53,271 nucleotides of DNA from a virus (lineage: Duplodnaviria; Caudoviricetes). This document shows positions 2,800 to 53,218 of this stretch, in pieces. Position 1 is the first letter of the stretch. Every line of letters starts with the position of its first letter. Under the pieces are notes generated by a model. It ran no database searches. It had not been told where the DNA came from and worked only from the letters and a program-made list of their open reading frames with translations. The position numbers and the translations under genes are program-made. The stretch lies in the IMG/VR virus record IMGVR_UViG_3300036766_001847, positions 1-53,271 of that record. One strand, 5' to 3'.

Positions 2800-3648
2800 A
2801 TGACCCTTTGCACCCCCGACCCGAAGCCCCTCACCATCGCCGAGCTCGACGTCATCGAGTCGAAGGCGCACGCGGCGATCTGCGATCCACAGAACGGCTG
2901 GTATGCGGAAGACGTGCCACGCGTCGTGGCCGAGGTGCGCCGTCTTCACCGCCACTCGGCCGCGGCGATGCTAGCGATGTTCGATCTGACCTACGACCTG
3001 GTCGACGGCCAGCGCGTCTGCCGCAACTGCGGCGCAGAGAAGAACGACTACCACGGCGGACATGTTCCGGGCTGCGAGGTCGGCGATGCGATGGAGGCCG
3101 CGCATGACTTCGTAGTGGGAACGCGCTGCCCATGCTGCGGCCGAAATGGAGAGCCGCGCACGGACGAAGAGGTGAAGACCTCCTCGTGCACCGACTGCGG
3201 CAGGCCTCTTCCCATGAAGTACGCCCCCGGCTGCCGAATGGCAGCGCTGACCCGGCCCCGGCCGCGCATTCGCGATCTGCGCGAAGAGCAACGGCTCCGC
3301 GCCGCTCTCGAAGCCGTCGAGTGGTCCGAAGGTCCCGAGGGCGAGGTATGCGCAGCATGCGAGCGGTACAAGGACGAGGGGGCGCACCGACCCGACTGCA
3401 AGGTCGCCGCGGCGCTCGGCCGGCCGACGCGGAGCGACGCCGAACAGCATGCGCTGAACAAAGCGAAGTGCGACGCCGAGCATGAGCGGATCGACGCAGA
3501 GCTAGCGATCCATGGGAAGCGGCTGAACTGCAACCACCGCTGCGTCACCCCGCGCTTCACTCCGGGCGACCCACCGACGGCTACGGTGGTCTGCACCGAA
3601 TGCGGCGCGGACGTCGGCATTCGGGTCGACGTCGTCGTCGACCCATAG
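2800..3648 (+). CDS. Cys-rich hypothetical protein with several CxxC pairs and an Ead/Ea22-like N-terminus
   Basis: ELDVIE..A...EDVPRVVAEVRRL; CRNC, CPCC, CTDC, CAAC, CTEC. Confidence 0.7.
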   Translation: MTLCTPDPKPLTIAELDVIESKAHAAICDPQNGWYAEDVPRVVAEVRRLHRHSAAAMLAMFDLTYDLVDGQRVCRNCGAEKNDYHGGHVPGCEVGDAMEAAHDFVVGTRCPCCGRNGEPRTDEEVKTSSCTDCGRPLPMKYAPGCRMAALTRPRPRIRDLREEQRLRAALEAVEWSEGPEGEVCAACERYKDEGAHRPDCKVAAALGRPTRSDAEQHALNKAKCDAEHERIDAELAIHGKRLNCNHRCVTPRFTPGDPPTATVVCTECGADVGIRVDVVVDP

Positions 3649-3684: not shown

Positions 3685-3876
3685 ATGAGCCCGACCACCG
3701 ACGCCAGGAAGCCGCCGCGCGCGGCCGCGCTCGTTCGTAGCTTCGTCATCGACGGCTCGATCTTGGCCGGCGCCGGGCTCCTGGGCTACGGGGCCTGGCT
3801 CGCCTACCGCCCGGCTGGGTTTCTCGTCGCCGGCGCGCTCTTCCTCGCTGCAGGGCTGAAGGCAACCCGCAAATGA
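3685..3876 (+). CDS. Small two-TM membrane protein preceding the portal
   Basis: Two hydrophobic segments (ILAGAGLLGYGAWLAY; AGFLVAGALFLAAG); this position is typical in HK97-like phages. Confidence 0.75.
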   Translation: MSPTTDARKPPRAAALVRSFVIDGSILAGAGLLGYGAWLAYRPAGFLVAGALFLAAGLKATRK

Positions 3877-6269
3877 GCCTCTTCGAAACGCTCTTCGGCG
3901 GCCGTCAGGAAGAAAAGGTGGCCGACGCATCGGCCCTCACCTGGACCGAGCTGCTCGGCTTCCCGTCGTCGAAGACCGGCGTCTCGGTGACCTGGCAGAC
4001 CGCCCTGCGGGTCTCGGTCGTCTGGGCCTGCTGCAGGGTGCTCTGCGAGGACGTCGGCAAGGTGCCGCTCAAGCTGATGCGGTCGAACCCCGACGGCTCG
4101 ACGGAGATCTGCCGCACCCATCCGCTGCACCGGGTGCTCTCGAGGAACCCGAACGAGTGGCAGACCTCGATGGAATGGAGGATGACCCAGCTCCTCCACG
4201 CCCTCCTCGCGCGCGGCGGCTACTCCTGGATCAACCGGAGCTCCGAAGGCGAGGTGCTCGAGCTGATTCCGCTGATGCCACAGTTCGTAATCCCGAAGAG
4301 GGACCGGAACTGGAACATCACCTACGAGGTCCGCGACATCGACGGTACGATCGCCATCCTCCCGCGCGAATCCGTGCACGTTCTCCACGGCCTTTCCTGG
4401 GACGGGCTGAACGGGCTCGACGTGACGTACCAGGGCGGCGAGGCCATCGGGCTGTCGATCGCCACCGAGGAGACGCAGGCCCGCCTGCACGGGCAGGGGA
4501 CGCGGCCCGGCGGGGTCATCACGACGACCTCGAAGCTCGACGACAAGCAGATCGACCGCCTCAAGCTGCAGTTCGCGAATAACTACTCGGGCGTGGCCAA
4601 CGCCTTCAAGACGCTGCTGCTCGACAACGGCCTGGAGTTCAAGCCATGGGCGATGAGCGGCGTCGACGCGCAGCACCTCGAGTGCGTTGTGCCCGGCACG
4701 CTGGTCTCGATGGCTGACGGGACGAGACTGCCCGTTGAGGCTCTTCGGGTCGGGGATCGGGTAGTTGGGTGGGCCGATGGCCCGGTTGCGGCTCGCGTTG
4801 CCGCGATCGGCCGGCCGCCCACGAAAGACCTCGTCCGCGTGACGACCGCGCGCGGCCGCACGATCACCTGCTCTTCGGACCACCCCTTCCTTTCGATGAA
4901 GTCGCTGCGCACGCCCGGCTCCCGTCCGGTGAAGAGTCCGCCCGAATGGGTGAAGGCCGGCGAGATCGGCCCGGGCCAGTATGTGCGCGTGGGACTTGGT
5001 CACGTTGCTGCCGACTGCGCCACCCTCGATTCCGACGTCGCCTGGTTTCTTGGGGCGATGGTGGGGAACGGTTACATCCGGGGCGGCGGGTGCTCCTTGT
5101 CCACCATCGATCCGGGCGTCATCGCGAAGGCGGAGGCGGTCGTCCGGAGCCAGGGCGGGTGGCTGAAGCAAAGCAACTCGCGGCCACAGGACTTCTTCAT
5201 CGCCACCGGCGGGAAGGGAACGAGTCGTCGCGGCGGGGCGCTCCGACAGCTTTTCAACCGCGCAGGCCTCGTCGGCTCCCATTCGCACACGAAGCGCGTG
5301 CCGGACATGGTCATGGCGGCCGGACCGACCGCGTGGCGCGCGTTCCTCTCCGGCTACCTCGACACCGATGGCACGATCGGAAAGGTCAAAGGCAAGGCGC
5401 CGCTGGTCTCGTGGGGCAGCACGAGCCGCGCGCTTCTCGACGACAGCCAGCACCTTCTCGCCTCTCTCGGAGTGCAATCGGCGATCTACAAGGTCGGCGC
5501 CGGCGGTCGCCGGATGGTGTGCGGTCAGGAATGCGACACGCAGCCCTCCTGGCAACTCGTCGTCTACGGAGCCTCACAGCTCGCGCAGCTCGCGCGACTT
5601 CTGTCCCCCGCGCATTCCGAGAAGGCGTCGCGACTGGTGGAGGTTGGTTCACACCCGCCAAGCCGGTATGGGCAGAACAACGTCCTCTTCGACCGGGTCC
5701 TCTCGGTCGAGCGACTCGGTCGAGGCGAAACGATCGGCGTCGAGATCGAGGGCATCCACACGCACGTGACGAACGGCCTCGTCACGCACAACACCCGCCG
5801 CCACCAGGTCGAGGAGGTATGCCGCTTCTTCCGCGTGTTCCCGGCGATGGTCGGCTTCAGCGACAAGGCGACCACGTACGCGAGCGCCGACGCCTTCCTC
5901 AACGCCCACGTCACGCACTCGCTGATGCCATGGATCACTCTCTGGGAACAGGCGATCGACCGCGACCTGCTCACCTCGGACGAGATCGAGAACGGTTTTC
6001 ACTCCAAGTTCGTGATGCAGGGCCTTCTGCGCGGCGACGCGAAGAGCCGGGCCCTCTTCTACGAGTCGGCCATCACGAAGGGTTGCTGGATGACCCGGAA
6101 CGAGGCGCGCCGGCTCGAGGACCTCGACCCCATCGACGGCCTCGACGACATGCTGCGGCCGCTCAACATGCAGGCGGAGGCTGACGGTCCGCCTGCGCCG
6201 GGAGACCCCGCGGACCCGGCCGATCCCACGGCGGACGACCCGACCGTTCCCGACCCCGGCGCCGAGTAG
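3873..6269 (+). CDS. HK97-family portal protein containing an intein (predicted spliced product 428 aa)
   Basis: Portal motifs ALRVSVVWACC, PNEWQT, LDNGLEF, DAQHLE...TRRHQVEEVCRFFRV, LLRGD, MTRNEAR. Confidence 0.95.
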   Translation: MSLFETLFGGRQEEKVADASALTWTELLGFPSSKTGVSVTWQTALRVSVVWACCRVLCEDVGKVPLKLMRSNPDGSTEICRTHPLHRVLSRNPNEWQTSMEWRMTQLLHALLARGGYSWINRSSEGEVLELIPLMPQFVIPKRDRNWNITYEVRDIDGTIAILPRESVHVLHGLSWDGLNGLDVTYQGGEAIGLSIATEETQARLHGQGTRPGGVITTTSKLDDKQIDRLKLQFANNYSGVANAFKTLLLDNGLEFKPWAMSGVDAQHLECVVPGTLVSMADGTRLPVEALRVGDRVVGWADGPVAARVAAIGRPPTKDLVRVTTARGRTITCSSDHPFLSMKSLRTPGSRPVKSPPEWVKAGEIGPGQYVRVGLGHVAADCATLDSDVAWFLGAMVGNGYIRGGGCSLSTIDPGVIAKAEAVVRSQGGWLKQSNSRPQDFFIATGGKGTSRRGGALRQLFNRAGLVGSHSHTKRVPDMVMAAGPTAWRAFLSGYLDTDGTIGKVKGKAPLVSWGSTSRALLDDSQHLLASLGVQSAIYKVGAGGRRMVCGQECDTQPSWQLVVYGASQLAQLARLLSPAHSEKASRLVEVGSHPPSRYGQNNVLFDRVLSVERLGRGETIGVEIEGIHTHVTNGLVTHNTRRHQVEEVCRFFRVFPAMVGFSDKATTYASADAFLNAHVTHSLMPWITLWEQAIDRDLLTSDEIENGFHSKFVMQGLLRGDAKSRALFYESAITKGCWMTRNEARRLEDLDPIDGLDDMLRPLNMQAEADGPPAPGDPADPADPTADDPTVPDPGAE
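4683..5792 (+). mobile_element. Intein with LAGLIDADG homing endonuclease (370 aa, residues 271-640 of the portal ORF)
   Basis: Starts C-VVPGTLVSMADG; block B TCSSDHPF; LAGLIDADG helices WFLGAMVGNG and AFLSGYLDTDG; ends GLVTHN followed by Thr(+1). Confidence 0.95.
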
Positions 6270-28249: not shown

Positions 28250-28516
28250 ATGCACTACCGCAACGGCAGAGAAGCGAAGAACGGTGACCTCGTGGTCCTC
28301 ATCTAGCCGACCTACGGGCATCCGGTCGTCGGCATCCTCTACGACGCCGTGGCCGGCAACGACTACTGCAACGGGAAGATCGCGCCGGTCGCCCCGAACG
28401 ACCCGTGCCCGAACCTGAAGGAGTGCCTGCACCTCGACGACGCGCTCGCCGTGCTCAATGGCGACGTGCCGTCGGTCGTGATGCCCGACGCGCCACCGGC
28501 CGCCGCCGCGAAGTAG
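28250..28516 (+). pseudogene. MHYRNGREAKNGD-type small protein with an in-frame TAG at codon 19
   Basis: Strong SD; GC3-rich reading frame continues past TAG 28304-28306 (..GILYDAVAGNDYCNGKIAP..CLHLDD..) to TAG 28514-28516. Confidence 0.75.
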
Positions 28517-28543
28517 CCACCCTCAACCCAAGGAGCCGCAACC

Positions 28544-28762
28544 ATGACGCCAGAAACCCCGGGCCGAGAGCCCACCGAGCCGATCATGCAGTTCTTCAGC
28601 TACGCGCACCTTCCCGCGCACCTGCAGCCGGTATCGGCCCCCTTCGGCCTGCTCGCCAACGAACTCGTCGAGAAGCTGCCGCGGAATCCGGAGCGCTCGA
28701 CCGCCCTGCGCAAGCTGCTCGAGGCCAAGGACGCCGCGGTTCGGGCGCTGCTGTTCAAGTAG
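28544..28762 (+). CDS. Small helical-hairpin protein, resembles Acb2/Tad1-type nucleotide sponges
   Basis: QFFSYAHLP.HLQ.VS.PF..LA and LP.NPERSTALRKLLEAKDAAVRA. The gene is clear; the function is inferred. Confidence 0.6.
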   Translation: MTPETPGREPTEPIMQFFSYAHLPAHLQPVSAPFGLLANELVEKLPRNPERSTALRKLLEAKDAAVRALLFK

Positions 28763-28792
28763 TCCACCCAAGCCCGACTCCCAAGGAGACCC

Positions 28793-29437
28793 ATGCTTCT
28801 GACCCTGCTCTGCCTCATGCTGTTCGCCCCGATCGCCTTCCGCATCCTCGCCAGCGGCCGTCCGCGGCTGCTCGTGTCGTCGATCGCGATGGCGCTGCTC
28901 TTCCTCTTCGCCCCCGCGGTCACGCTCGCCCAGGACGTCGCCGCGACGGCGCCGGCGGGCCTCGGGGCCATCTGGGTCTCGGCACTGGCTTGGCTCCTGA
29001 CGCCGGCGGGGCTCTCCACCGCGATCGCCGTCCTCGGGGGCGGAGCCACCCTCATCTTCGGGGGCAAGGCGATCGTCTGGGAGCTGCGGTTCGCGAAGTT
29101 CGTCAAGAACGCGTTCAACGTCGTCGAGGACCTCAACACCGACCCGGCCCTGGTGGGCAAGCTCGACAAGGAGGCGGCCGGCCTGAAGGCGCTGAACGAC
29201 CTGATGGTGGCGAAGGGCTGGCGCCCGCCTACCGCCGACGAGCAGGCCCAGGCCAAGCTCGCCTTCAGGGTGATGAACGGCGAAGCCGAGGCGGCCACCG
29301 CCGTCCAGGCCAACGCCCTGATCGCCGCGGCCCAGGCCTCGGGCCAGAAGGCCGCCGACAAGGTGGTGACCCCCGGGGACGCCCTGAAGGCCCTCACCGA
29401 CCTGGTCGCCCAGAAGACTCCGGCGCAGGCGCCGTGA
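28793..29437 (+). CDS. Multi-TM membrane protein, holin candidate
   Basis: Three to four hydrophobic segments followed by a helical soluble domain; AAGGAG SD; in the lysis module. Confidence 0.6.
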   Translation: MLLTLLCLMLFAPIAFRILASGRPRLLVSSIAMALLFLFAPAVTLAQDVAATAPAGLGAIWVSALAWLLTPAGLSTAIAVLGGGATLIFGGKAIVWELRFAKFVKNAFNVVEDLNTDPALVGKLDKEAAGLKALNDLMVAKGWRPPTADEQAQAKLAFRVMNGEAEAATAVQANALIAAAQASGQKAADKVVTPGDALKALTDLVAQKTPAQAP

Positions 29438-29796
29438 GGCTGCTCGCCCTGGCGCTGGCGCTCAGCTGCTCGAGCGCGCTCGCCGAGGTCCCCGACGGGG
29501 GGGCGGATATCCCTCCCCCGCCGCCCGTCCTGCTCGTCTCCGGTCGGGTGGTCGCGGTCGATGGCGGGGTGATCGACGTGGAGCCAATGAGCGCCTACCT
29601 CCCGCCGGCGACGCTGATGGCCGAGGGGAAGGCGGTGGCCGACCTGCAGGCCCGAAACGATTCGCTCACATCAGGACTGCGCGCCCTCCCGATGCCCGTA
29701 GTCGTTGGAGGGGTGAGCACCATCTCCACGGCGATCACCGTCGGCGTGGCGCTGCTCCTGCACTTCTTGCCACCGAAGGCGCCCCCAAAGCAGTAA
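29434..29796 (+). CDS. Signal-peptide protein with C-terminal TM (unimolecular-spanin-like topology)
   Basis: MRLLALALALSC N-terminus, Pro-rich linker, short coiled coil, C-terminal hydrophobic helix and basic tail. Confidence 0.5.
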   Translation: MRLLALALALSCSSALAEVPDGGADIPPPPPVLLVSGRVVAVDGGVIDVEPMSAYLPPATLMAEGKAVADLQARNDSLTSGLRALPMPVVVGGVSTISTAITVGVALLLHFLPPKAPPKQ

Positions 29797-29805
29797 GCTG
29801 CTTGC

Positions 29806-29902
29806 CACGCGGTGGGGGAGCCTGGACGTCCCCGCCGGGCTCTCCTGGGACGAAGTTGAGCCCAGGGCCTGGAGATCGCAGGTTCAAATCCTGCCCGCGC
29901 GA
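29806..29902 (+). ncRNA. tRNA-like RNA (Met/fMet-type scaffold) with a 28-nt insert in place of the anticodon loop
   Basis: Acceptor CACGCGG/CCGCGCG (1 mismatch), D-arm GGGG/CCCC, anticodon stem CCGGG/CCTGG, variable loop AGATC, T-arm GCAGG-TTCAAAT-CCTGC; no encoded CCA. Confidence 0.75.
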
Positions 29903-29930
29903 TTGGGCCCAAACCAGCGCAGCACCCGTG

Positions 29931-29960
29931 CCCCCGGGGCGACCTCGGGGGTTTCGTTTT
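29931..29960 (+). terminator. Rho-independent terminator ending the late operon
   Basis: CCCCCGGGG-CGA-CCTCGGGGG followed by TTTCGTTTT. Confidence 0.85.
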
Positions 29961-30037
29961 GCGGGCTGACGCACAACGGCCCCGGTTACCCGAGGCCGCC
30001 ACCGCTCTTAACGGTGTCTACGCTGTCTTGCCGGGCG

Positions 30038-30220
30038 TTACCCGGCGCGGTGCATGGCGCCCTCCGGCGCGGCGAAGCGCGGCCGCTCTGGTTCCTTGGC
30101 CACCACCCAACGCTCCTCGAGCACTTCGTGCCCGAGAGCGCGAAGTTTCCGGATCACCGCTTCGCGCAGGGGCGTGGTGCGGGTCGAGAAAAAGAGGAGT
30201 TTCTTTGGGCGATCGTCCAT
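30038..30220 (-). CDS. Hypothetical protein (60 aa)
   Basis: Last ORF of the leftward operon. Confidence 0.45.
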   Translation of the reverse strand: MDDRPKKLLFFSTRTTPLREAVIRKLRALGHEVLEERWVVAKEPERPRFAAPEGAMHRAG

Positions 30221-30263
30221 GTCCAGATCCTATCTCGCGGGCCGCGACGAACGGGCCGGGCGG

Positions 30264-30560
30264 CTACGACTCGTGTTCAGTGACGGTCGGCTTCGCGCCC
30301 TTCGACTCCATGAACGGAACGAGGACCCTGACGAAACAGTCCGGGCAGACGTCGAAGCCGATCTCCCTGATGCTGCCTCCGCCGTCCGGGTAACTCGTCC
30401 CGGCCTCGTGCCTGACCTCGACGACCGTCCCGTCGGTCTCGTAATAACCAGCGCCCCACTTGCTTCCGGGCACCTTCGCCTCTTTGCCGCAGAGATCGCA
30501 GATCTGAAGCGTTGTTTCCGTCCATTCGTGCGTCTTCGTGACCTTGTGCTCTTTTCGCAT
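30264..30560 (-). CDS. Hypothetical Zn-finger-like protein
   Basis: CDLC...DVCPDCF. Confidence 0.7.
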   Translation of the reverse strand: MRKEHKVTKTHEWTETTLQICDLCGKEAKVPGSKWGAGYYETDGTVVEVRHEAGTSYPDGGGSIREIGFDVCPDCFVRVLVPFMESKGAKPTVTEHES

Positions 30561-30586
30561 CGTCTCTCTCTGCCCGCGTTGACGGG

Positions 30587-31024
30587 CTACCGTCGCCCAG
30601 CAGGTCCCATGCCGGTGGCGATGGCGTCGTCGCTATGCTCGCCGCAGTAGTACCATCGCAGATCTCCCTGACCCGCCTTGAGCCATTCGGTCAGGAGTTC
30701 GGGCGACCCGGCAAAGGCGCTCGCGCTGCACCCCGGGTGGTCGCAATGGTAGACGGTTAGCGACCGGACGGACGTCGCCGCGGCGCGCGTTGCGGCGGCG
30801 ATGATCTTCGCTTCCCGCTCGGGCGTCACCACGGCAAGCGTCTCGTCGGCGCGGGCAGAAAGGAAAGCGACGATCTCTTCGCGCGCCGCCCGAACTGCAG
30901 AGGCCCCGACGGCGCGAAGTCTCCTCACCTCCGCCACCAGTTGTAGCGCGGGCTCGCACATCTCCTCCGAGCCGAGGAGGTGCTGTGCCCGCGCCTCGAT
31001 CTTGTCCAGTTCCTTGTCGGTCAT
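30587..31024 (-). CDS. Ead/Ea22-like hypothetical protein
   Basis: MTDKELDKIEARA...LVAEVRRLR; CDHPGC...YCGEH. Confidence 0.65.
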   Translation of the reverse strand: MTDKELDKIEARAQHLLGSEEMCEPALQLVAEVRRLRAVGASAVRAAREEIVAFLSARADETLAVVTPEREAKIIAAATRAAATSVRSLTVYHCDHPGCSASAFAGSPELLTEWLKAGQGDLRWYYCGEHSDDAIATGMGPAGRR

Positions 31025-31254
31025 GACCGCGCCAGTACCTTCAACGCCTCGCGAGCCTTGCGCAACTTCTCGTCCGCACCACAGTCGCACGGCGGAACCC
31101 TCTCGCCATGGCGGGTGTAGGACCCCGGGTCGTACCTCGCGCACATACATCCCCGAGCCGCGCCGGTCGGTATGCGGTCGTGCCGGCTCGAGCCTTGCGC
31201 GGCAACTCGATTGACCGCCCATTTCGCCCAGCGCAGCGCTTCGGCTTTCGTCAC
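31021..31254 (-). CDS. Hypothetical protein (77 aa)
   Basis: Coupled by ATGA; CxC motifs. Confidence 0.5.
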   Translation of the reverse strand: MTKAEALRWAKWAVNRVAAQGSSRHDRIPTGAARGCMCARYDPGSYTRHGERVPPCDCGADEKLRKAREALKVLARS

Positions 31255-31573
31255 GCCCCTACCCTACCTCTCCCGGACCTCTTCGGAAGCGCCGCGTGCT
31301 ACCCACGCGCCGAGACCACCGCGATCGGATGCGAACGGCCCATTCGTCTTGGCGCTCAGGCTTCAACAGCTCGACCAGCGCCCGCTGCGTCGAGCCGGCC
31401 CCAGGAGCGCTCGGCGTAGCCCCGCGCCGGGTCCCGTCCCTTCCCGGCGCCCGCCGCGACCAGGCACCGCTCCGCAATCTCGTTGACGTTGTGGGTGATG
31501 TTCTCGTCCACCACGTCAGCGCCGGAGCGGTGGCACGTCGGGCACTCCGGCTCGCTCATCGACATCTCGAAGC

Positions 31574-31765
31574 TCACCTTGGCCTCCGGGCCTTCGGAAG
31601 CGAGCTTGGCCCGCGCTCGATCCGGAGCTCGATACCGCGGCCGCAGAAGTGGCACACCCGCCCGTGGATCTCGAAGTCGGTGCGGCTTTGGATGCGCCGA
31701 AGGGCCACCACGTTCCCGCACCCACAGAAGACCACCTGCGGCGAAAGCCCGCTCTTCGTCCCCAT
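31574..31765 (-). CDS. Small Zn-ribbon protein
   Basis: FCGCG...CHFC; AAGGTG upstream. Confidence 0.5.
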   Translation of the reverse strand: MGTKSGLSPQVVFCGCGNVVALRRIQSRTDFEIHGRVCHFCGRGIELRIERGPSSLPKARRPR

Positions 31766-31974
31766 CACCGCACCTTCCTTCCGTCGCCGACCCGCGCGCC
31801 GGCCGCGCGGAGCCACTCGCCCACCGCGGTATTGTGGACGCCGAGTCGCTGAGCGCTCGCCGAGCGGGTCAGCTCCGGGTCGGCCGCGAGCTCGACGGCC
31901 CGCTTCCTCTTCGCCTCGAGCTGCTCGAGCCGGAAGCTGCGCTGCGCCAGGATGTCTGGGTTGTCGCGGGCCAT
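31765..31974 (-). CDS. Small HTH DNA-binding protein
   Basis: LTRSASAQRLGVHNTAVGEWLR. Confidence 0.7.
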   Translation of the reverse strand: MARDNPDILAQRSFRLEQLEAKRKRAVELAADPELTRSASAQRLGVHNTAVGEWLRAAGARVGDGRKVR

Positions 31975-33704
31975 CAGGGCCTCCCATCGAAGAGAAGATC
32001 GGAGGCACCCAGCCTTCCGGCGCCGGCGTCAGCGACCAGCTGCCGGGCGCGGAGCCGCTGCAGGTAGGTGTCCCTGCTCGACCGCTGGTAGTTGGTGACC
32101 GTCGAGATGTGCTCCCGCTCAACCGACCCCGGCCAGGCCGCCACCAGGACCTCGAGCACCGCGCGCTCGCCCGTGGGCAGCCGCCCGCGCCAGTGCTCGA
32201 GCAGGGCCCCGCCGGTGGGGAGTGGAGCGAAGTCGGGCCCCAACGCCTCGATCCCGGCCGCGGTGACGACGATCCGCTCCCCCGCCTCAACGAGTCCCTG
32301 CTCGCGGAGGCGCTGCAGGTAGGTGTCGCGGCTGCTGCGCTTGTAGCCAGTGAGCACCCCGAGCTGCTCGCGCGTCACGCCGCCGTCATGCTGGGCCACC
32401 GCGGTGAGCACCGCGCGCTCCCCCTTCGGAAGCGACCCCGGGCCCGGCGCGCCGGCGGCGTGGGCGGGGCGAGGCGCCGCCGTTCTGGCGGGAAGAGCTC
32501 GGGCGGCCGGTCGGGAGGCTGGCGGGACTGGACTCGGCCGGCTCATCGCCTGCGCGACGCAGCTTGCCAGCCGCTTCGTGGTGGTCTCGAGTACCAGCGC
32601 GGCCTCTGCCGCCTCCTGCGATGCCCGTTCAGCCGCGCCGGCGGCGAGCTTCAGCTCGGCGAGCTGAGCCGCCTCGATCACCGGCACCCTCACCTCGAGG
32701 GGCGCCGTCGGGGCCGCGGGGCGCGCGGCAACCTGCCGCTCGAGCTCGGCGATGCGCTTCCGCAAGAGCGCCGGGTCGCTCGCCTTCGCGCGCTCGAGTG
32801 TCGCCGCCATCTGCCGCCGTAGCGCCTCAAGGTCGACGTCGGCGCGCTGCTTCGGCTCGATGCGTGTCTCGCCCGGCTCCGGGGTCGCGCCGGAGTCGAA
32901 CGTCTCGATGCGGTCGATGTGGACGCGCTTGAAGATTCCCTCGTCCGAAGGCCAGCCCGGCGACCACACCCAGGCGTCGCCCCGCGGAAGCGACGGCAAC
33001 GACTGCATCAGCGTGGTCCGCTGCTCCGGCGACCCGTGCACTTCTATCCACGCGTCCATGGCGGCGAGGTCCTGCGGCGCGATCGTCCTCATCGCGATCA
33101 TCACCTGGGCCTGCGTCAGCACGTTCTTGTTCAGCACGGCCGACCGCTGTGTGACGAGCGTGCAGCCGATGCCGCGCTGCCGGCCGCGGCGCACGATGTC
33201 CTCGATCGCTCCGAGCATCCGCTCCGTGCCCTTCGGCGGCTTTTGTGGCGCGATAGCGTCGGCCTCGTCGACGAAGAGCATGACCGGCGTGCGGAACTGC
33301 TCGCGGGCCTTGAGCCGGTAGAACGTCTCGAGAAAAGCCGTCATGAACGTGGCGACCTCGTGCTTCCGGAGGAGCGAGAGGTCGATGACGACGCTCACGC
33401 GCTCCTCAACGACGAGCTTCGCGACGAGCTCGCCAGAGCCGGTGTCGAGCGGCAGGTCGCCGTGCTCGCCGCCGAGAATGAGGCAGCCGATCCCCGACCC
33501 CTTTCCGTCCGCCGAGGACCTCACCCCCCAATGGTCGCCCTTGGGGTCCACGTCGACGACCTGCATCCCCGCCTTGAAGAGGCGCTCAAGGAGGAGGCGA
33601 AGCGTGAACGTCTTGCCTGAGCCTTTGCGCGCGAGGATCGCAAAGGTCTGCGTCACAGCGTCGAGCGGGAGCGCCAGGTCGGCCGAGAGATGCAGTTGCT
33701 TCAT
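31974..33704 (-). CDS. HerA/FtsK-like (DUF87-type) ATPase with two C-terminal winged-helix repeats
   Basis: ARKGSGKT, VDPKGDHWG, FVDEAD, RRGRQRGIG, TQR; repeat LP.GERAVL...T.Y.RSSRDTYLQRLR occurs twice. Confidence 0.88.
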   Translation of the reverse strand: MKQLHLSADLALPLDAVTQTFAILARKGSGKTFTLRLLLERLFKAGMQVVDVDPKGDHWGVRSSADGKGSGIGCLILGGEHGDLPLDTGSGELVAKLVVEERVSVVIDLSLLRKHEVATFMTAFLETFYRLKAREQFRTPVMLFVDEADAIAPQKPPKGTERMLGAIEDIVRRGRQRGIGCTLVTQRSAVLNKNVLTQAQVMIAMRTIAPQDLAAMDAWIEVHGSPEQRTTLMQSLPSLPRGDAWVWSPGWPSDEGIFKRVHIDRIETFDSGATPEPGETRIEPKQRADVDLEALRRQMAATLERAKASDPALLRKRIAELERQVAARPAAPTAPLEVRVPVIEAAQLAELKLAAGAAERASQEAAEAALVLETTTKRLASCVAQAMSRPSPVPPASRPAARALPARTAAPRPAHAAGAPGPGSLPKGERAVLTAVAQHDGGVTREQLGVLTGYKRSSRDTYLQRLREQGLVEAGERIVVTAAGIEALGPDFAPLPTGGALLEHWRGRLPTGERAVLEVLVAAWPGSVEREHISTVTNYQRSSRDTYLQRLRARQLVADAGAGRLGASDLLFDGRP

Positions 33705-33878
33705 CGGGTTCTCCTCAAAAGTGCGGCGCCGGCGACGGCTGACCAGAGACCCGTCGCCCGGGTGATCCGACCCCTGTATGTATCGGCGGTGCCCGGTGTG
33801 CCGCTGGAAGTCAAAGGACGTTCACCGTGACCGGACCGTCGCCCCAGACGTCACGGCGGTGGAGCACGAGCGCGGCGA

Positions 33879-35774
33879 TTATCTCGTCGAGCCTCTCCGG
33901 CCCCTTGAACCGAAGAATGCGAACCTGGCCGTTGGGGTCGGCCCATCCACCGCGGTGCGCGCCAGGGCGCCGCGCAACCCCGGTTTCTTCTTCGGCCGCT
34001 TCGGAGGCTTGCCCCCGATGCGCGACCGGCCGGCACTCCTCGAGCCCAGCGCGGCCTTCCATTTTTCGAAGTCCTCCGGCGTGATGACGTAGCTCGGAGC
34101 GACTCCGGCCCGATTGCAGTCGAAGCAGAGAGGAAGGGCGACCGTGCCCTCCCGGCTGCCGGCGTGAACCCACCCGCAACCGCCCTTCTCTGGGTTGTTG
34201 CGGGCCCGGGTGATGCCGCAGTGCGAGCAGACGTCCTCTCCGCGCCTGTAAGCCTCGAGCGAGGCGGTCACCTGCTCGGCCGACCCGGCCTCGAACCCAG
34301 CTGTCGGGTTGGCGGCGTTCGTGCGCTCGTATTCTCGCTGCGCCAGCGTGGCGAGGCCCTGGTGCTGGTCGCATAGCGCGCTGGCCGTCTCGGTCTTGCA
34401 GCCCTTCACCGAGCACCGCTTGTGGAGGGGCGGCTTCTTCGCCCTGGGCGGCACCGGAAGGCCCGCGAGCAACTTCTCCCTCGCCTCATGGACCGCGTCG
34501 GCGGCGGCATCGCCGGGGGCGATCGAGGACGGCCGCGCCTGCTTTGGCGCCTCGGGTCCCGAGGTGACCCATCCGTCCCGCGCCGCCCGGGCGTACATCT
34601 CGAGGCGGCTGCGGCCCGGGCAGAGCTTCTCCACCATCTCGTAGAACTCCGCCGGTTTCTCGCTGTGCATCCGGCGCACGGCCGCGATGAAGGTGGTCTC
34701 GTTCGTGAGGTTCAGGAGGGGGTTGCCCCTGATCGCCAGCACGCAGTGCTCGGTGATGTTCCGCAGGTAGCGGCCGACCCCCATCCGGTCTTTCTTCCAG
34801 GTCAGCAGCGTCTTCGGGGTGAACCCCCAGCCCTTCAAAACCTGCTGCACGGGGGCGCGGAGGTCGACCAGGTGGCTGTTCGTAGTCCAGAGCCACAGCA
34901 CGCAGTCCTTGTCGGCCGGGGGCTTCACAGCGGCGATCTGGTCGATCGTCATCGCCGGGTACGGCAGGCCGCCGCGCGCATCGTCGCTGCCGTCGAGCTG
35001 GTCCTCGAAGGGCCAGGGAGGGTCGGCGGAGATCACCTCGAAGGCTCCCTCGGGCGGACGGTAGGCGGCGATCTGCGTCAGCTGGCGCGACTTCTTCACC
35101 GTCTTGCTGGCGCGGTTCAGCGTCAGCTCCCCGGACTTCACCTTCTCGGCCAGCGCCGGCGAGTCCCTCCTGAGTTGCTTCGCCAGCTCGACCTGGCGCG
35201 CGCCGACGCCCGTTGCCGCCGCGGCATGCCGAGCGGCCTTCCCCGACTCGACCGGTGAGGGCGCCTTGTTCTTCCAGGTCCGGAGCCCGTTCGAATGCGC
35301 CCCGGAGTGCCCAGCGTCGTGGATGCAGGGCGCGCCGCCGTCCTTCATGCCGCAGGCGCCCGGCATCGCTTGGCGCGACTTCGCGCTGACTGATTTCCGA
35401 TCGCCGCCGGCCGCGCGCTGCCGGTCCTTGGCCTCGGCCTCGAAGAGGGGAAGAGCCTCGGCGGCGATCATCGCCAGCTGGCTGGGGGCGAGGTGTCGCC
35501 GGCGGACGTTAAGGCTCATCACGTGGGCCGTGGGGCTGATCTCCCCGTTGGCGCCCGGAGCCCAGGAGGTGATCCTCGGCTTGACGCCGAGCCGCTCGCA
35601 GACGAGCAGGCGGTTCCGGCCGTCGAGCACCTTGCCCCCGAAGAGCTCGATCGCCTGAAGCTGGCCATTGGCCCGAATGTCGGCGCCGAGCTGCTCGAGC
35701 TCGGGCTCGGTCATCAGGGGGAAGAGACTCGCCGCGGGGTGGACGTCGTAGCTGCCGATCTTCTCGAGCTTCAT
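33879..35774 (-). CDS. ParB-like domain fused to an MT-A70-family N6-adenine methyltransferase
   Basis: HPAASLFP...DIRANGQ...LDGRNR...NVRRRHL; ADPPW, LWLWTT, HSEKP, LEMYAR. Confidence 0.9.
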   Translation of the reverse strand: MKLEKIGSYDVHPAASLFPLMTEPELEQLGADIRANGQLQAIELFGGKVLDGRNRLLVCERLGVKPRITSWAPGANGEISPTAHVMSLNVRRRHLAPSQLAMIAAEALPLFEAEAKDRQRAAGGDRKSVSAKSRQAMPGACGMKDGGAPCIHDAGHSGAHSNGLRTWKNKAPSPVESGKAARHAAAATGVGARQVELAKQLRRDSPALAEKVKSGELTLNRASKTVKKSRQLTQIAAYRPPEGAFEVISADPPWPFEDQLDGSDDARGGLPYPAMTIDQIAAVKPPADKDCVLWLWTTNSHLVDLRAPVQQVLKGWGFTPKTLLTWKKDRMGVGRYLRNITEHCVLAIRGNPLLNLTNETTFIAAVRRMHSEKPAEFYEMVEKLCPGRSRLEMYARAARDGWVTSGPEAPKQARPSSIAPGDAAADAVHEAREKLLAGLPVPPRAKKPPLHKRCSVKGCKTETASALCDQHQGLATLAQREYERTNAANPTAGFEAGSAEQVTASLEAYRRGEDVCSHCGITRARNNPEKGGCGWVHAGSREGTVALPLCFDCNRAGVAPSYVITPEDFEKWKAALGSRSAGRSRIGGKPPKRPKKKPGLRGALARTAVDGPTPTARFAFFGSRGRRGSTR

Positions 35775-35810
35775 GGTGGTGGTCTCCGAAAGTGCGCGCC
35801 CAACCGGAGA

Positions 35811-35823
35811 GGGGGGGGGGGGG
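35811..35823. repeat. G13 homopolymer in the loop of an inverted repeat, upstream of the ParB/MT-A70 gene
   Basis: CCGGAGA-G13-A-TCTCCGG, with outer GCGCGC/GCGCGC. Confidence 0.85.
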
Positions 35824-35867
35824 ATCTCCGGCCGAGCGCGCGTGGCACGCGGAAAGCTGGCGCGCCG

Positions 35868-36122
35868 TCAGCGGTGAACGTGGGTAATGCGAGGGGTCGC
35901 CTCCCCGGCGGCCTCAAGGACGTGAAGGATCGCCAGCTCGAGCGCGTTCTCGGACGAGCGAACGAGGGCGGCCCAGGCGCTATCGGCCTCGCCGCGGGCG
36001 CACGCGATCTGGAATTCTTCGCGCACATCGTCGCGGTGCCGACGCGCGGTGGCGAGCTCGGCGATGGCTCGGAGGAGAAGATCGCCGACCAGCTTCACCT
36101 CGATGGTCCCGAGATCAGCCAC
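35868..36122 (-). CDS. Hypothetical helical protein
   Basis: Part of the contiguous leftward operon. Confidence 0.6.
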   Translation of the reverse strand: MADLGTIEVKLVGDLLLRAIAELATARRHRDDVREEFQIACARGEADSAWAALVRSSENALELAILHVLEAAGEATPRITHVHR

Positions 36123-36426
36123 GGTACGTGCTCTCTTGCGGTGAGGCGGTGGGGGCGCTGACGGTGGCCGCGGCGAGCCGAGCCTCGAAGAGCGGGCCAG
36201 AGAGGCTGTCGAGGTCGAGCTTCCTCTTCGCGGCCCCGTCCCTGACTCGGTACCAGCTGGCGTGCACGCGGTCGTAGAGCTTGCCGATCAGGCTCCCGAG
36301 CGTCGCCGCGCCGGCGATGCTGGACAGCTCGGACTGGGCCCGCCCGAGTTCTTCTTGGGCGCGCTGGATGTGCTGCAGCGCCCGCTGGACCCTGGCCCGG
36401 GCCTCGGTCTCGGTCGCGGCGCTCAC
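36115..36426 (-). CDS. Hypothetical helical protein
   Basis: GTG 36426, overlapping neighbours; ARVQRALQHIQRAQEEL. Confidence 0.6.
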   Translation of the reverse strand: MSAATETEARARVQRALQHIQRAQEELGRAQSELSSIAGAATLGSLIGKLYDRVHASWYRVRDGAAKRKLDLDSLSGPLFEARLAAATVSAPTASPQESTYRG

Positions 36427-36550
36427 CGGGTCACCGCCTGCAGCTCGGCCCAGAGGCGCTGCTCGCGCCAGTGAAGGTAGAGGCTGCTGGGCTGCTGGAG
36501 GTAATCCCAGGCCGCCCGGTTCCACGCATCGAGGGCAAGAGCGAAGCGGC

Positions 36551-36727
36551 TCAAGGGTGCGCCTCCACAAGGAGGCAGGACCCGGTCCGCACGTCGTAGA
36601 GCTCGAGGCTGTCCCAGCTCGGGCCCGCCCCGGCAAGCGCCTCGAAGTACGCCTCGAGCCGGTTCGACGCCTTGACGAGACTGGTCCGGGCAGAGCCATG
36701 CCCGGTGACAACGATGAAGAAGCGCAC
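36551..36727 (-). CDS. First gene of the leftward early operon (58 aa)
   Basis: AGGGAGG SD before GTG 36727. Confidence 0.55.
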   Translation of the reverse strand: MRFFIVVTGHGSARTSLVKASNRLEAYFEALAGAGPSWDSLELYDVRTGSCLLVEAHP

Positions 36728-36857
36728 GAGAGCCTCCCTTGACTGAATCGCCTGCCCCTGCTCGCTGCTCGGCGTTGCGACTCCGCCTCCGAAGAGGCTG
36801 GCTCCCCACCACCAACACACCCGGCCGCCGCTGCTGCGCCACCGACCAACAAGAAAG

Positions 36858-36926
36858 GTTCTAGCACCGCTTTCCGGTGCGGTCAACCGCACCGAGGTTG
36901 ACACCGCAATGCGACTCGCGTACTAG
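36858..36926. promoter_or_regulatory. Divergent promoters with a 20-bp palindromic operator
   Basis: Minus strand TTGACC-N17-TAGAAC (36886-36858); plus strand TTGACA-N17-TACTAG (36898-36926); palindrome CGGTGCGGT-CA-ACCGCACCG at 36875-36894. Confidence 0.7.
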
Positions 36927-37762: not shown

Positions 37763-38113
37763 ATGACCCTCGACGAGGTGATCAGGCAGGTGGTGCGGGA
37801 AGAGGTCCGCACAGTTGTGCGCGAGGAACTCGGCGCGCTCCGCGAGGCCGCCCCGGCCGAGCCGGGTCCCGAGCGGGCGACCGAGCTGCTCGACGTCGCC
37901 GGCGTGGCCAAGCTGTGCCACGCGACGGCGGGCACGGTGAGGACGTGGATTCAGTCTGGTCGGCTGGCTGCCCGGAAGGCGGGCCACCGCTACCTGGTGC
38001 GGCCGGTGGACGTGGAGCGGTTCCTCTCGGCGCGCCTCGCCGGCGAGCCGGACGTCGAGGGGCAGGTGTCGAGCATTCTGGATCGGCTCGGGGACAGGAG
38101 CACCCATGGGTAG
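37763..38113 (+). CDS. Excisionase-like HTH protein 2 (overlaps the int start)
   Basis: LLDVAGVAKLC..TAGTVRTWIQSGRL.A.K.G.RYLV...DVERFL. Confidence 0.82.
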   Translation: MTLDEVIRQVVREEVRTVVREELGALREAAPAEPGPERATELLDVAGVAKLCHATAGTVRTWIQSGRLAARKAGHRYLVRPVDVERFLSARLAGEPDVEGQVSSILDRLGDRSTHG

Positions 38114-39713
38114 CGTCTACCGGAGGGGCAGGAAGCTGTGGCTGCGCTTCAAGGGGCCCGATGGGAAGTGGACCCAGGTCGGCACCGACTTCCTCGTCGG
38201 CCAGGAGCGCCAGGCTCGCGTCGCGCTCGAGAAGCTCGAGAAGCGCATCACCGCGGGGCTGGGCCAGGGGAACATCGGCGGGCCGCTCACCGTCGCGCGC
38301 TTCGTGCCGACCTGGCTCGCCGAGAGGAAGCTGCAGGTCGAGGACTGGAAAGGCGACGAGGCCAAGCTGCAGCAGCACGTGCTCCCCGCCATCGGCCGCT
38401 TCCGCCTGGACCAGGTGCGCCCGCGCCACCTCGTCGAGCTGATGCTGAAGCTCCGCGGCGAGCTCGCGCCCAAGACCGTCTACAACGTCTATTCAGTGGT
38501 CTGCGCCCTCTTCCGGGACGCGCTGCTCGCGGACCTCGTCCCGGCCTCGCCGTGCGTGCTCACGCGGCGCCAGCTCGGGGCGAAGGTCGACTCCGATCCG
38601 GAGTGGCGCTCGACCGCCATCTACAGCCGGGACGAGATCGAGCAGCTCATCTCCGACCCGCGCGTCCCGGCCGACCGGCGGGTGCTCTACGGGCTCGAGG
38701 GGCTGGCGGCGCTTCGCCACGGCGAGGCCGCGGGGCTGCGCTGGCGGCACTACGACGCCTCGGCCACGCCGCTCGGCATGCTGACCGTGGCGACCTCGTA
38801 CGACAAGGGCCGCACCAAGACCAAGATGCCGCGCTTCATGCCGGTGCACCCCGCCCTCGCCGCGCTGCTCGCCGAGTGGAAGCTGACCGGCTGGGAAAAG
38901 ATGTTCGGCCGCGCGCCCGGGCCCGACGACCTGGTGGTGCCCCTCGAGCCGGAGGCCAAGCGCCCGGGCGGCATCCGCCTCAAGAACAACTCCCGCGACC
39001 GCCTCATCATCGACCTGGCGGCCCTGGGCCTTCGCCACCGGCGTGGGCACGACCTGCGGCGCACGCTGATCTCCCTCGCCCGCTCCGACGGCGCCCTTCG
39101 GGACATCCTCCGGCGCGGCACGCACCAGGCCTCGAAGGAGGTCATCGAGGGCTACACCACCTTCGAGTGGGAGGTCCTCTGCCGGGAGGTCTCGAAGCTG
39201 CGGATCCAGCGCCGCGGGCTTGCCCGGGTGGTGGCGCTGACCCGCGCCGTGGGGGCCCCGGAGGGCCTTGCTACAGTCCTTGCTACAGCCTCCAGCCAAC
39301 CGGCCGAGATCACGGCCGAAGAAGAGTGCACGAGCCGGGAATCGAACGCGGGTGGCACACCTCGGACGACCAGCGGATCAGCGGAGTCCACGTCATCACC
39401 GCCAGACGTTCCGGGCGGTTGCGCGGGCGGCTCCGAGCCCGGAACCTCGGATGATGATGGAGAACCCCCGAGTAGACGTAGCAACGTAGCAAGCCAAGAG
39501 GTGCGCCTCGAAGCGCCGGGCGGTTGGAAGGCGGCGGCGAAGCACTTCTCCGAGCAGATCCTCGGCATCGACGACGGGCTGCAGAGCGGTGAGCCGGACG
39601 CCGAGGTGACGGTCCAGGGCGACGACTGGCAGGAGCTCGTCGCGCTGGCGATCCGCGTCGCGCGCGCGAACGGCGATCCGCGCTTCGGCGGCCCGAAGGG
39701 CGGTGGCAGGTGA
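38106..39713 (+). CDS. int: Tyrosine integrase with long C-terminal extension containing the putative attP
   Basis: MGSVYRR arm domain; LRHGEAAGLRW, RTKT, HDLRRT, TH...IEGY catalytic residues. Confidence 0.93.
   Translation: MGSVYRRGRKLWLRFKGPDGKWTQVGTDFLVGQERQARVALEKLEKRITAGLGQGNIGGPLTVARFVPTWLAERKLQVEDWKGDEAKLQQHVLPAIGRFRLDQVRPRHLVELMLKLRGELAPKTVYNVYSVVCALFRDALLADLVPASPCVLTRRQLGAKVDSDPEWRSTAIYSRDEIEQLISDPRVPADRRVLYGLEGLAALRHGEAAGLRWRHYDASATPLGMLTVATSYDKGRTKTKMPRFMPVHPALAALLAEWKLTGWEKMFGRAPGPDDLVVPLEPEAKRPGGIRLKNNSRDRLIIDLAALGLRHRRGHDLRRTLISLARSDGALRDILRRGTHQASKEVIEGYTTFEWEVLCREVSKLRIQRRGLARVVALTRAVGAPEGLATVLATASSQPAEITAEEECTSRESNAGGTPRTTSGSAESTSSPPDVPGGCAGGSEPGTSDDDGEPPSRRSNVASQEVRLEAPGGWKAAAKHFSEQILGIDDGLQSGEPDAEVTVQGDDWQELVALAIRVARANGDPRFGGPKGGGR
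39266..39492. other. attP: Putative attP inside int
   Basis: Core 39327-39347, reverse complement GTTCGATTCCCGGCTCGTGCA (tRNA T-loop plus acceptor-like). Flanked by CCTTGCTACAG x2 (39266-39288) and the inverted CGTAGCAA x2 (39477-39492). Confidence 0.75.
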
Positions 39714-51764: not shown

Positions 51765-52349
51765 ATGAGGCCAGGGACGGAAGAACCGATGATCTCCGCA
51801 GCGCTCCGCGACCTGCCTCTTGCTGCCGAGGCGGCCGACTACGAGGACGGCGTCGCTTACTGCTCAGGTCCCGAGTGCGATCGGCCGGTGTTTCGTCTAG
51901 GACTGTGCGAGGGGCATTGCAAGCAGCGGCAACGCCAGAAGCCTCTCGCGCCGCTGGCTGAGAAGCTCACCCCGCGCCAGCGGTTCTACGAGGCGATCAC
52001 CGCGTGGGCCGAGTGCGACTCGGGCGACGATGAGGCCTATGCCGAGGCCGAGCGCTCGGTCGAGTACGCGGCCCGCCAGGCGTTCGGGAAGAAGAACGCC
52101 GGCGAGGCGATCCGGAAGGGCATGGCGGCGGCGCGCGCGCGCGGTGTTCGCGTCGGTCGCCCGCCCAAGCTCGCCCAGAAGGAAGCCCAAGCGCTGGTGC
52201 TGAAGACGGGAAGCTTCCGCGCCGCGGCCAAGAAGTTGGGCGTGCACTGGATCACCGTCTGGCGCGCCATTCGCCGCGCCGCGGTTGCGCAAAGCGACCT
52301 TTTGCAATCGCCGCCGAGTGGTCCACGACCGCGGCGAGGATCTCGGTGA
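51765..52349 (+). CDS. Zn-finger plus Hin-like HTH protein, candidate late-gene activator
   Basis: GGAGG SD; CSGPECDRP...GLCEGHC; GMAAARARG..VGRPPKL...SFRAAAKKLGVHWITVWR; last early gene before the late operon. Confidence 0.65.
   Translation: MRPGTEEPMISAALRDLPLAAEAADYEDGVAYCSGPECDRPVFRLGLCEGHCKQRQRQKPLAPLAEKLTPRQRFYEAITAWAECDSGDDEAYAEAERSVEYAARQAFGKKNAGEAIRKGMAAARARGVRVGRPPKLAQKEAQALVLKTGSFRAAAKKLGVHWITVWRAIRRAAVAQSDLLQSPPSGPRPRRGSR
52321..52342 (+). promoter_or_regulatory. Late-module motif, copy 7 (GTCCACG-accgcggcg-AGGATC)
   Basis: Ends 6 nt before ATG 52349 of the HNH gene, the head of the packaging operon. Confidence 0.8.
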
Positions 52350-53218
52350 TGCCGACCGCACCTCCTCACCCATGCGCCCAACCGGGGTGCCCGACGCTGG
52401 TGCCCCGCGGGCATGCGCGGTGCGAGCCGTGCGCCCGCCAGCGGTTCGCTGAAGACCGTGACCGACGCGGGACATCGGCAGGGCGCGGATACGGCGGGCG
52501 CTGGCGCAAGGCACGGTTGCTCTACCTCCTTTCGAACCCGCTCTGCATTCAGTGCGAGGGGTACGGGCGCGTCGTACCCGCAGTTGCCGTCGACCACATC
52601 ACCCCGCACCGCGGCGATCAGGATCTCTTCTGGGATGAGGGCAACTGGCAGCCGCTGTGCCTGAAGTGCCACAACGTCAAGACCGCCACCGAGGACGGCG
52701 GGTTCGGTTCGGCGGCCGTGTTGCCCCCAGGCATGCGGCCTTCCCTCGTTCCGCTCACGGTGGTGGCAGGCGCGCCCGCGAGCGGCAAGAGCACGCTGGT
52801 CCAGGGCGTGGCGGTCGACGGCGACCTGGTCCTCGACCTCGACGCCATCCGGGCACGCCTGTCCGGTCGCCCCATCTACGAGGCGGGAGAGGAGACCTAC
52901 CGGCCCGCAATGGCGGAGCGCAACGCCCAGCTCAAGCAGCTCGGCCACCCTCAGGCCCGCTGGTCCAGGGCGTGGCTCATCGCCTCGGCGCCCTCGCCTG
53001 CCGCCCGGCGCTGGTGGCGCCGGAAGGCGGGCGCGCGCATGGTGGTGATCACCACCCCCCTCGAGACCTGCCTGCAGCGCATCGCCGCCGACCCCCGCCG
53101 GCGGGACAAGGAGCGGCACCTGCGCGCCGCGCGCGAGTGGTGGAGCGCCTACCGGCCAGCACCAGAGGACGAGAGCGACGGCGAGTGGAGGGCACTCCCT
53201 GAGGCCAAGTATGGGTAA
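52346..53218 (+). CDS. Packaging-type HNH endonuclease fused to a P-loop kinase-like domain
   Basis: CAQPGC, RGYGGRW, PLCIQC, VDHITPH, NWQPLC..CHNVKT; then GAPASGKST and DLDAI. Confidence 0.9.
   Translation: MMPTAPPHPCAQPGCPTLVPRGHARCEPCARQRFAEDRDRRGTSAGRGYGGRWRKARLLYLLSNPLCIQCEGYGRVVPAVAVDHITPHRGDQDLFWDEGNWQPLCLKCHNVKTATEDGGFGSAAVLPPGMRPSLVPLTVVAGAPASGKSTLVQGVAVDGDLVLDLDAIRARLSGRPIYEAGEETYRPAMAERNAQLKQLGHPQARWSRAWLIASAPSPAARRWWRRKAGARMVVITTPLETCLQRIAADPRRRDKERHLRAAREWWSAYRPAPEDESDGEWRALPEAKYG

Follow-up and report, generated by a model that had tools for sequence, protein, structure and literature searches.

The stretch of DNA considered here, in the following referred to as the window, is the complete record IMGVR_UViG_3300036766_001847 of the IMG/VR database (Duplodnaviria; Caudoviricetes), a linear sequence of 53,271 bp with a CheckV completeness of 78% and a guanine-plus-cytosine (GC) content of 69%. 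Its plus strand carries a late siphophage block at positions 153-29796, as revealed by Pfam and PHROG scans of the open reading frames (ORFs), and immediately behind the last ORF of this block lies a transfer RNA (tRNA)-shaped element of 97 nt (29806-29902, plus strand), which is the subject of this report. The element, which ARAGORN calls in its intron-tolerant mode, is homologous to phage tRNA-Met(CAU) genes according to a covariance model; its anticodon loop, however, comprises 28 nt rather than 7. It begins 10 nt past the TAA stop codon (29794-29796) of the last late ORF and ends 28 nt ahead of the intrinsic terminator of the late unit (29930-29961, plus strand), which consists of a 10-pair stem followed by a T-run. 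A location between the last ORF and the terminator had been proposed in an initial annotation, made from the sequence alone, and is borne out. Because of the 10-nt gap to the last ORF, the terminator behind the element and the lack of a promoter-like site in 29300-30700, it is reasonable to infer that the element is expressed together with the late genes.

Read on the plus strand from its 5' end, the element starts with the acceptor-stem strand CACGCGG (29806-29812), which pairs with 29895-29901 at six of the seven positions; the mismatch is an uncompensated A2.C71, at a position where the tRNA-Met family has a G-C pair. The D-arm, GGGG-AGCCTGGACGT-CCCC (29815-29833), is built from four all-GC pairs and an 11-nt loop containing GG. 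It is followed by the anticodon arm (29835-29872), in which a 5-bp stem, CCGGG (29835-29839)/CCTGG (29868-29872) with one G.T pair (G.U in RNA), closes the enlarged loop (29840-29867). The variable loop AGATC (29873-29877) is identical to that of the phage tRNA-Met family, the T-arm reads GCAGG/TTCAAAT/CCTGC (29878-29894), and the 3' end (29895-29902) is formed by the acceptor strand CCGCGCG (29895-29901) and the discriminator A29902, with no encoded CCA. Altogether, standard or G.U pairs occupy 20 of the 21 stem positions, and the conserved tertiary nucleotides are all kept (U8, A14, G15:C48, G18G19, G53:C61, and T54-A58); the T-loop motif GGTTCRANTCC has its sole perfect occurrence within the window in this element. 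Inside the enlarged loop, folding predicts a hairpin of 23 nt, CCTGGG/ACGAAGTTGAG/CCCAGG (29844-29866); an alternative stem GGGCTC/GAGCCC, formed by 29837-29842 with 29858-29863, is also present. The arms, the variable loop, the six of seven acceptor pairs, the missing CCA, the 28-nt loop and both alternative stems had all been described in the initial annotation and are found in place. The 28-nt loop holds no CAU, and the element thus lacks the 7-nt loop with CAU that a decoding tRNA-Met requires.

The relationship to tRNA-Met was examined with R1, a covariance model for which six canonical tRNA-Met genes were used, the element of the window being left out. R1 matches 29806-29902 over its full length (model positions 1-77) with 62.3 bits and an E value of 6.6e-13, while the runner-up match across the 53 kb scores 12.7 bits. 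Furthermore, the 3' 32 nt of the element are identical at 31 of 32 positions to the canonical tRNA-Met(CAU) of L002, an unrelated viral contig. The resemblance to a methionine or initiator tRNA noticed in the initial annotation is thereby substantiated. In the R1 alignment the loop opens with C32 U33 C34 as in the family; then 25 nt (29843-29867) take the place of the four positions A35 U36 A37 A38. The change is a replacement of four nucleotides by 25 rather than a clean insertion. With regard to L002, it was further observed that the tRNA-Met sharing the element's 3' half (2960-3074, minus strand) has an A1.G72 mismatch and a C at position 33, and that an isolated second T-arm fragment, GCCGGTTCGAATCCGGC, follows directly after it.

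Members of the family were sought in IMG/VR by combining the 5' part of the D-arm with the T-loop at tRNA-like spacing. Seven loci were returned, namely three tRNA-Met(CAT) genes, three tRNA-Asp genes and one spurious span across two tRNAs. The three tRNA-Met(CAT) genes, located in the records G009, G010 and G011 (L066 no. 8, L065 no. 5 and L067, respectively), define a phage tRNA-Met(CAU) family with the D-arm GGGG-AGCCUGG(A/U)CGU-CCCC and the variable loop AGAUC. They have the unusual D-arm, the variable loop, the T-loop and the anticodon-loop start CUC in common with the element, and stem differences are compensated; the tRNA-Met of G010 agrees with the window at all 27 nt of 29812-29838. 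Unlike the element, with its 28-nt loop, its lack of CAU and its A2.C71 mismatch, all three have 7-nt loops with CAU (CTCATAA in two cases, TTCATAC in one) and are found by ARAGORN at default settings. The phages carrying these normal genes are unrelated to the phage of the window; in G011, a complete 40.7-kb phage, the tRNA-Met is the only match to the element and the only tRNA in the surrounding 3 kb. Because the full-length match to R1 and the shared D-arm and variable loop are combined with 25 nt in place of four, the element is best classified as an aberrant member of this phage tRNA-Met family. A normal loop in relatives had been linked in the initial annotation to either a one-off insertion or an assembly artefact. 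The first of these is partly upheld, in that relatives within the gene family, in three other phages, show CTCATAA or TTCATAC; the second is unlikely, as will be outlined below.

Standard detection tools pass over the element. ARAGORN at default settings calls no tRNA or transfer-messenger RNA (tmRNA) gene there, and Rfam at gathering thresholds reports no family; in the E-value mode of Rfam, the only nearby match is to tRNA-Sec with 17.7 bits and an E value of 0.56, the gathering score of this family being 47. Accordingly, tmRNA, tRNA-Sec and Y-RNA-like mimic families, for which neither the ARAGORN tRNA/tmRNA scan nor Rfam gave a family-model match save this weak one to tRNA-Sec, were dismissed as candidates.

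Within the collections searched, the insert is found in this phage only. Its 23-mer hairpin has no match in the viral contig collection, and with as many as three mismatches allowed it occurs just once in the window, which makes a mobile palindromic repeat an unlikely source. No insert word of at least 11 nt recurs elsewhere in the window, so that no donor sequence is present there. A pattern of the two flanks with any 20-50 nt in between gave no match in the genome collection or in the metagenome collection, and the 21-mer used as 3' anchor in metagenomes retrieved a single, unrelated contig of a metagenome-assembled genome. Neither the element nor shared neighbouring genes were found at 26 loci from relatives of the phage (six recovered via the capsid protein and 20 via the HerA-like protein), where one tRNA-Tyr is the only tRNA; the whole related records G003 (100% complete) and G007 contain no homologue of the element. 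The 1-kb region around the element has no match among GenBank phages, the viral contig collection contains no relative of the upstream protein of 214 aa, and no capsid match was obtained among 401 genomes of the phylum of G002, the choice of phylum being an arbitrary guess. By terminase, the nearest cultured relatives are only 40-45% identical. No RNA run is listed as holding the sequence of the element. The contigs L002, L003 and L004, which share a 24-mer with the element, were rejected as relatives of the phage in view of their unrelated contexts, and so was the sequencing run X2, in which short pieces of low likeness only were found.

Concerning its structure, the insert forms a helix of 6 bp, or of 7 bp when a U.G pair is counted, with a loop of 8-11 nt, which is separated from the anticodon stem by a 3-nt bulge and stacked on it; in the constrained fold the anticodon stem is lengthened by the pair C29840-G29867. 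The hairpin alone amounts to -12.0 kcal/mol, a value equalled by 2.4% of loop shuffles and 5.6% of 28-mers drawn at random from the window, and the folding z-score of the whole element is -1.9. That the insert is ordered, as had been put forward in the initial annotation, goes only marginally beyond chance and is suggestive at best. The cloverleaf including the hairpin has -42.8 kcal/mol as drawn and -49.1 kcal/mol when constrained, compared with an unconstrained minimum of -48.7 kcal/mol.

From these data, the explanation to be preferred, with a probability estimated at slightly above one half (about 0.55), is that a phage tRNA-Met gene was disabled recently, no longer decodes and travels passively in the 3' untranslated region (UTR) of the late/lysis operon. 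In this one phage, the AUAA of the anticodon loop has been exchanged for 25 unrelated nucleotides that can fold into a hairpin of 6-7 bp. The resulting RNA is unable to decode because the CAU anticodon is gone; methionyl-tRNA synthetase requires CAU and would not charge an RNA without it. Transcription would be passive, as part of the 3' UTR of the late/lysis operon, and the intact acceptor, D and T arms may still allow cleavage by RNase P and subsequent trimming. The change would be a recent one, and the RNA would presumably have no function of its own. A disabled gene is favoured because the relatives have normal 7-nt loops, the insert is a singleton, no CAU can be recovered, the hairpin is weakly non-random and A2.C71 is uncompensated. 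The order of preference in the initial annotation, in which a tRNA mimic or a small-intron tRNA was considered likelier than decay, is reversed by these points together with the lack of both a bulge-helix-bulge motif and a ligase or splicing enzyme among the scanned ORFs, to be discussed below.

Degenerate tRNA-like sequences in cultured phages likewise count in favour of a disabled gene. Streptomyces phage Ibantik (NC_073462; L070, 25554-25783) contains an unannotated degenerate tRNA-like piece with the T-arm GCAGGTTCAAATCCTGC as in the element; it is flanked on one side by an annotated tRNA-Met and on the other by a 93-nt "tRNA-Gly" whose extra arm is oversized and poorly paired. The piece in Ibantik has lost most of the cloverleaf, whereas the element of the window combines 20 of 21 pairs with one discrete replacement.

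Several observations weigh against a disabled gene. The scaffold matches that of the working relatives in quality, with respect to both its pairs and its tertiary nucleotides, implying that decay, if it is decay, has barely begun. A clean replacement of four nucleotides by 25, with no donor in the window, is atypical of slippage or duplication, and the cloverleaf with its hairpin lies near the global minimum of free energy. A second family member with an enlarged loop, of 37 nt, is found in a comparable position at locus L068 of record G012, which hints at a recurrent theme. Finally, the collections hold no close relative of the phage, so that the lack of conservation of the insert stays uninformative. 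If the element is a broken tRNA gene, it would be an ordinary by-product of the gain and loss of tRNAs by phages, and it would serve as a warning that intron-tolerant tRNA finders report such relics as "intron-bearing tRNAs". On present evidence the finding is real but ordinary in kind; its interest hinges on whether the insert is maintained in relatives or the RNA accumulates.

Among the alternatives, a functional, non-decoding tRNA mimic survives best, although it has to be regarded as doubtful. According to this explanation, the RNA would be made late, and RNase P together with 3' trimming would release a tRNA-shaped molecule whose anticodon loop is a closed hairpin. As a decoy or sponge it could engage a host factor that binds tRNAs, for instance a defence nuclease that cleaves them or an enzyme that modifies or senses them; alternatively, it could determine the 3' end of the late mRNA by acting as a processing signal. 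In support of a mimic, the elements of the L-shape are intact, as are those features that are generally known to be recognized by RNase P and by the CCA-adding enzyme. The stacking of the hairpin on the anticodon stem in a near-minimum-energy cloverleaf and the position inside the late unit, immediately ahead of the terminator, point in the same direction. On the other hand, neither conservation nor covariation is demonstrable for a singleton insert, the figures from loop shuffles and window 28-mers leave the hairpin just marginally non-random, and the titles and abstracts of the literature searched describe no phage tRNA decoy with a hairpin-filled anticodon loop. If true, a mimic of this type would be a compact natural case, with an RNA of 97 nt, in which a phage has made a non-decoding mimic out of a tRNA, and it would be relevant to the question of how phages withstand defences that cleave or sense tRNAs.

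Of relevance to such a mimic is L068, which was found as one extra locus upon widening the spacing in the D-arm/T-loop pattern search. This tRNA-like element (L068/L069; 1744-1848, minus strand) is located in G012, a record of 43.8 kb that is 93% complete, in an unrelated phage. It belongs to the same tRNA-Met family and contains its 37-nt structured loop between CTGAG and CTCAG; R1 assigns it 43.8-45.9 bits, and ARAGORN calls nothing at this locus. The stop codon of a 212-aa ORF marks its beginning; behind it come a hairpin and then, with its ribosome-binding site and start codon, a small ORF encoding a hydrophobic membrane protein. That the same family has acquired an enlarged structured loop in a comparable place of another phage argues for a mimic; however, the enlarged loops of the two elements show no obvious common sequence, and the arms of L068 are conserved by construction because the search pattern required D-arm and T-loop, so that their conservation carries no evidential weight. 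The neighbours of L068 have no similarity to the upstream proteins of the window and gave no informative family matches, the inserts are unrelated as well, and L068 has no relative among GenBank phages. It is to be taken as a lead to a recurrent phenomenon and is no evidence of function. The generalization that could be built on it, namely that unrelated phages converted copies of one tRNA-Met family into non-decoding RNAs by means of structured loop inserts (28 nt in the window, 37 nt in L068/G012), is rather unlikely; such RNAs would lie directly behind an ORF, with a hairpin or terminator following, would thereby be produced along with late or lysis messages and be released by RNase P, and they would serve as decoys against tRNA-targeting defences or as 3'-end processing signals.

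Y-RNA-like tRNA mimics of the YrlA type exist in bacteria and phages and offer a precedent for comparison. In both YrlA and the element, a tRNA-like module of D-arm, T-arm and acceptor is retained, and the anticodon arm is replaced by another structure. However, in YrlA the termini of the RNA are located at the anticodon side, the acceptor being closed, whereas the topology of the element is the reverse, and no Rfam family is matched by the element at gathering thresholds.

The 3' fragments of tRNA-fMet genes are common phage attachment sites, and it is conceivable, albeit improbable, that the 3' half of the element together with the terminator constitutes a present, former or secondary phage attachment site (attP) that restores a host tRNA-fMet, in which case the 5' half would be a relic. 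The window does encode an integrase and two excisionase-like helix-turn-helix (HTH) proteins, and an exact 24-mer of the element occurs in only two species genomes of a collection of 185,579, each time within a 3' fragment rather than a complete tRNA. Moreover, temperate phages do carry an unannotated mid-genome tRNA-fMet 3' fragment with a terminator, an example being Arthrobacter phage Galaxy (NC_041876), where it lies about 2 kb from the integrase. In Galaxy as in the window, a T-arm and acceptor 3' strand of the tRNA-fMet type, followed by a terminator hairpin, are located between the lysis genes and the integrase region. Galaxy, though, has the 3' fragment only, while in the window the whole scaffold is present, including the 5' half, which is unnecessary for an attP, at a distance of 8 kb from the integrase; around the element there are no convincing arm-type repeats. 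No host tRNA with the 3' end of the element was found in the 24-mer search of the genome collection or in the 21-mer search of the metagenomes.

A better candidate exists elsewhere in the window. The probable attP lies at about 39290-39365 (minus strand), within the 3' extension of ORF 38106-39713 and just after the conserved part of the integrase. In it, a T-loop-like piece, CGTTCGATTCC, precedes two direct repeats, CTGTAGCAAGG. Contig L057, which encodes an integrase of 56% identity, ends in the same layout, its record breaking off within a 3' tRNA fragment. Since the probable attP lies inside the 3' extension, the final ~150 codons of the "integrase" ORF, 535 aa in length, may represent read-through and not protein.

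Still less probable is an intron-bearing tRNA from which proteins would splice out a hairpin mini-intron of 21 nt; its removal, by cutting and rejoining, would give a 76-nt decoding tRNA with the anticodon CUC, CUG or CAG. When introns are allowed, ARAGORN indeed calls a 76-nt tRNA-Glu(CUC) with a 21-nt intron, as could be expected from the initial annotation, in which a small-intron tRNA had been considered; the call was thus obtained, yet the intron itself is unsupported. The body of the element is of the tRNA-Met family, but no excision brings back CAU: removal of 21 contiguous nucleotides can yield six distinct 7-nt loops (CCCAGGG, CUCAGGG, CUCUGGG, CUCUCGG, CUCUCCG and CUCUCCU), and none of the six contains CAU. 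A normal anticodon loop has U33, a purine at position 37 and no Watson-Crick pair between positions 32 and 38, and by this rule none of the six is normal. Five of them place C32 opposite G38, which would create a sixth pair and a 5-nt loop, and the remaining one has a pyrimidine (C) at position 37.

A script that allowed both handednesses, G.U pairs and flanking helices of at least 2 bp detected no bulge-helix-bulge motif (two 3-nt bulges with 4 bp between them) in 29826-29882. Scanning the ORFs with Pfam and PHROGs brought up neither an RNA ligase nor a splicing endonuclease, the record being 78% complete. A group I intron was also considered and rejected; the insert of 21-25 nt is far below the catalytic core of a few hundred nucleotides (P1-P9), and no Rfam intron family is matched. 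For comparison, the tRNAs of Lak megaphages are described, in excerpts from Devoto et al. 2019 (PMC6784885), as carrying "enigmatic" introns, that is, inserts in the anticodon region with no known splicing mechanism, which lends the intron some plausibility, the Lak tRNAs and the element being alike interrupted in this region by an insert of no known splicing mechanism. According to the same excerpts, however, the Lak inserts are conserved across cohorts, and their excision points were set by alignment with intron-less copies (PMC6784885), whereas the insert of the window is unique and its removal yields no normal loop.

The least probable explanation is that the insert is an artefact of assembly or sequencing, as might be suspected of a single metagenome-derived sequence; it is very unlikely because a separate assembly of the probable source run, a Logan contig of 46,435 nt with a depth of 24.3, spans 28300-31300 with 0 differences and no indel reported in the region, the contig being built from the same reads, hence providing no independent data, and contigs in general dropping rare variants.

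As for the surroundings of the element, the late block on the plus strand contains the genes for the small and large terminase, portal, prohead protease, major capsid, tape measure and tail proteins as well as several small membrane proteins. The portal gene (3873-6269, plus strand) harbours an intein. Phage_portal is matched at residues 48-270 and in a second stretch, and at residues ~271-640 there are matches to Hint/Intein_splicing and LAGLIDADG domains.

The last late ORF (29434-29796, plus strand; 120 aa) was delimited with the aid of a codon-position GC plot. It had been called the last lysis gene in the initial annotation. It has no Pfam or PHROG match, but its translation has a signal/lipobox-like N-terminus and a membrane segment at the C-terminus, which look lysis-like. 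The product is probably a spanin-like lysis protein, an identity presumed here from the general architecture of spanins. With its lipobox-like signal and C-terminal membrane anchor it resembles a unimolecular spanin, which would suggest a Gram-negative host. Directly before it, ORF 28793-29437 (plus strand) has several membrane segments and no family match; it is taken to be holin-like, on the assumption that the usual architecture of holins applies.

Between the late operon and the excisionase and integrase genes lies an oppositely oriented gene block (30264-36867, minus strand), whose products include a HerA-like ATPase, bearing a MarR-like HTH at its C-terminus, and an MT-A70 methyltransferase of 631 aa; this block may be a prophage-expressed accessory or defence island. 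Beyond it, the two excisionase-like HTH genes, the integrase and the early genes are found. At the right end of the record, beside the terminase genes on the circular map, ORF 52346-53218 (plus strand) encodes an HNH endonuclease domain together with an AAA_33 domain of the P-loop kinase-like type.

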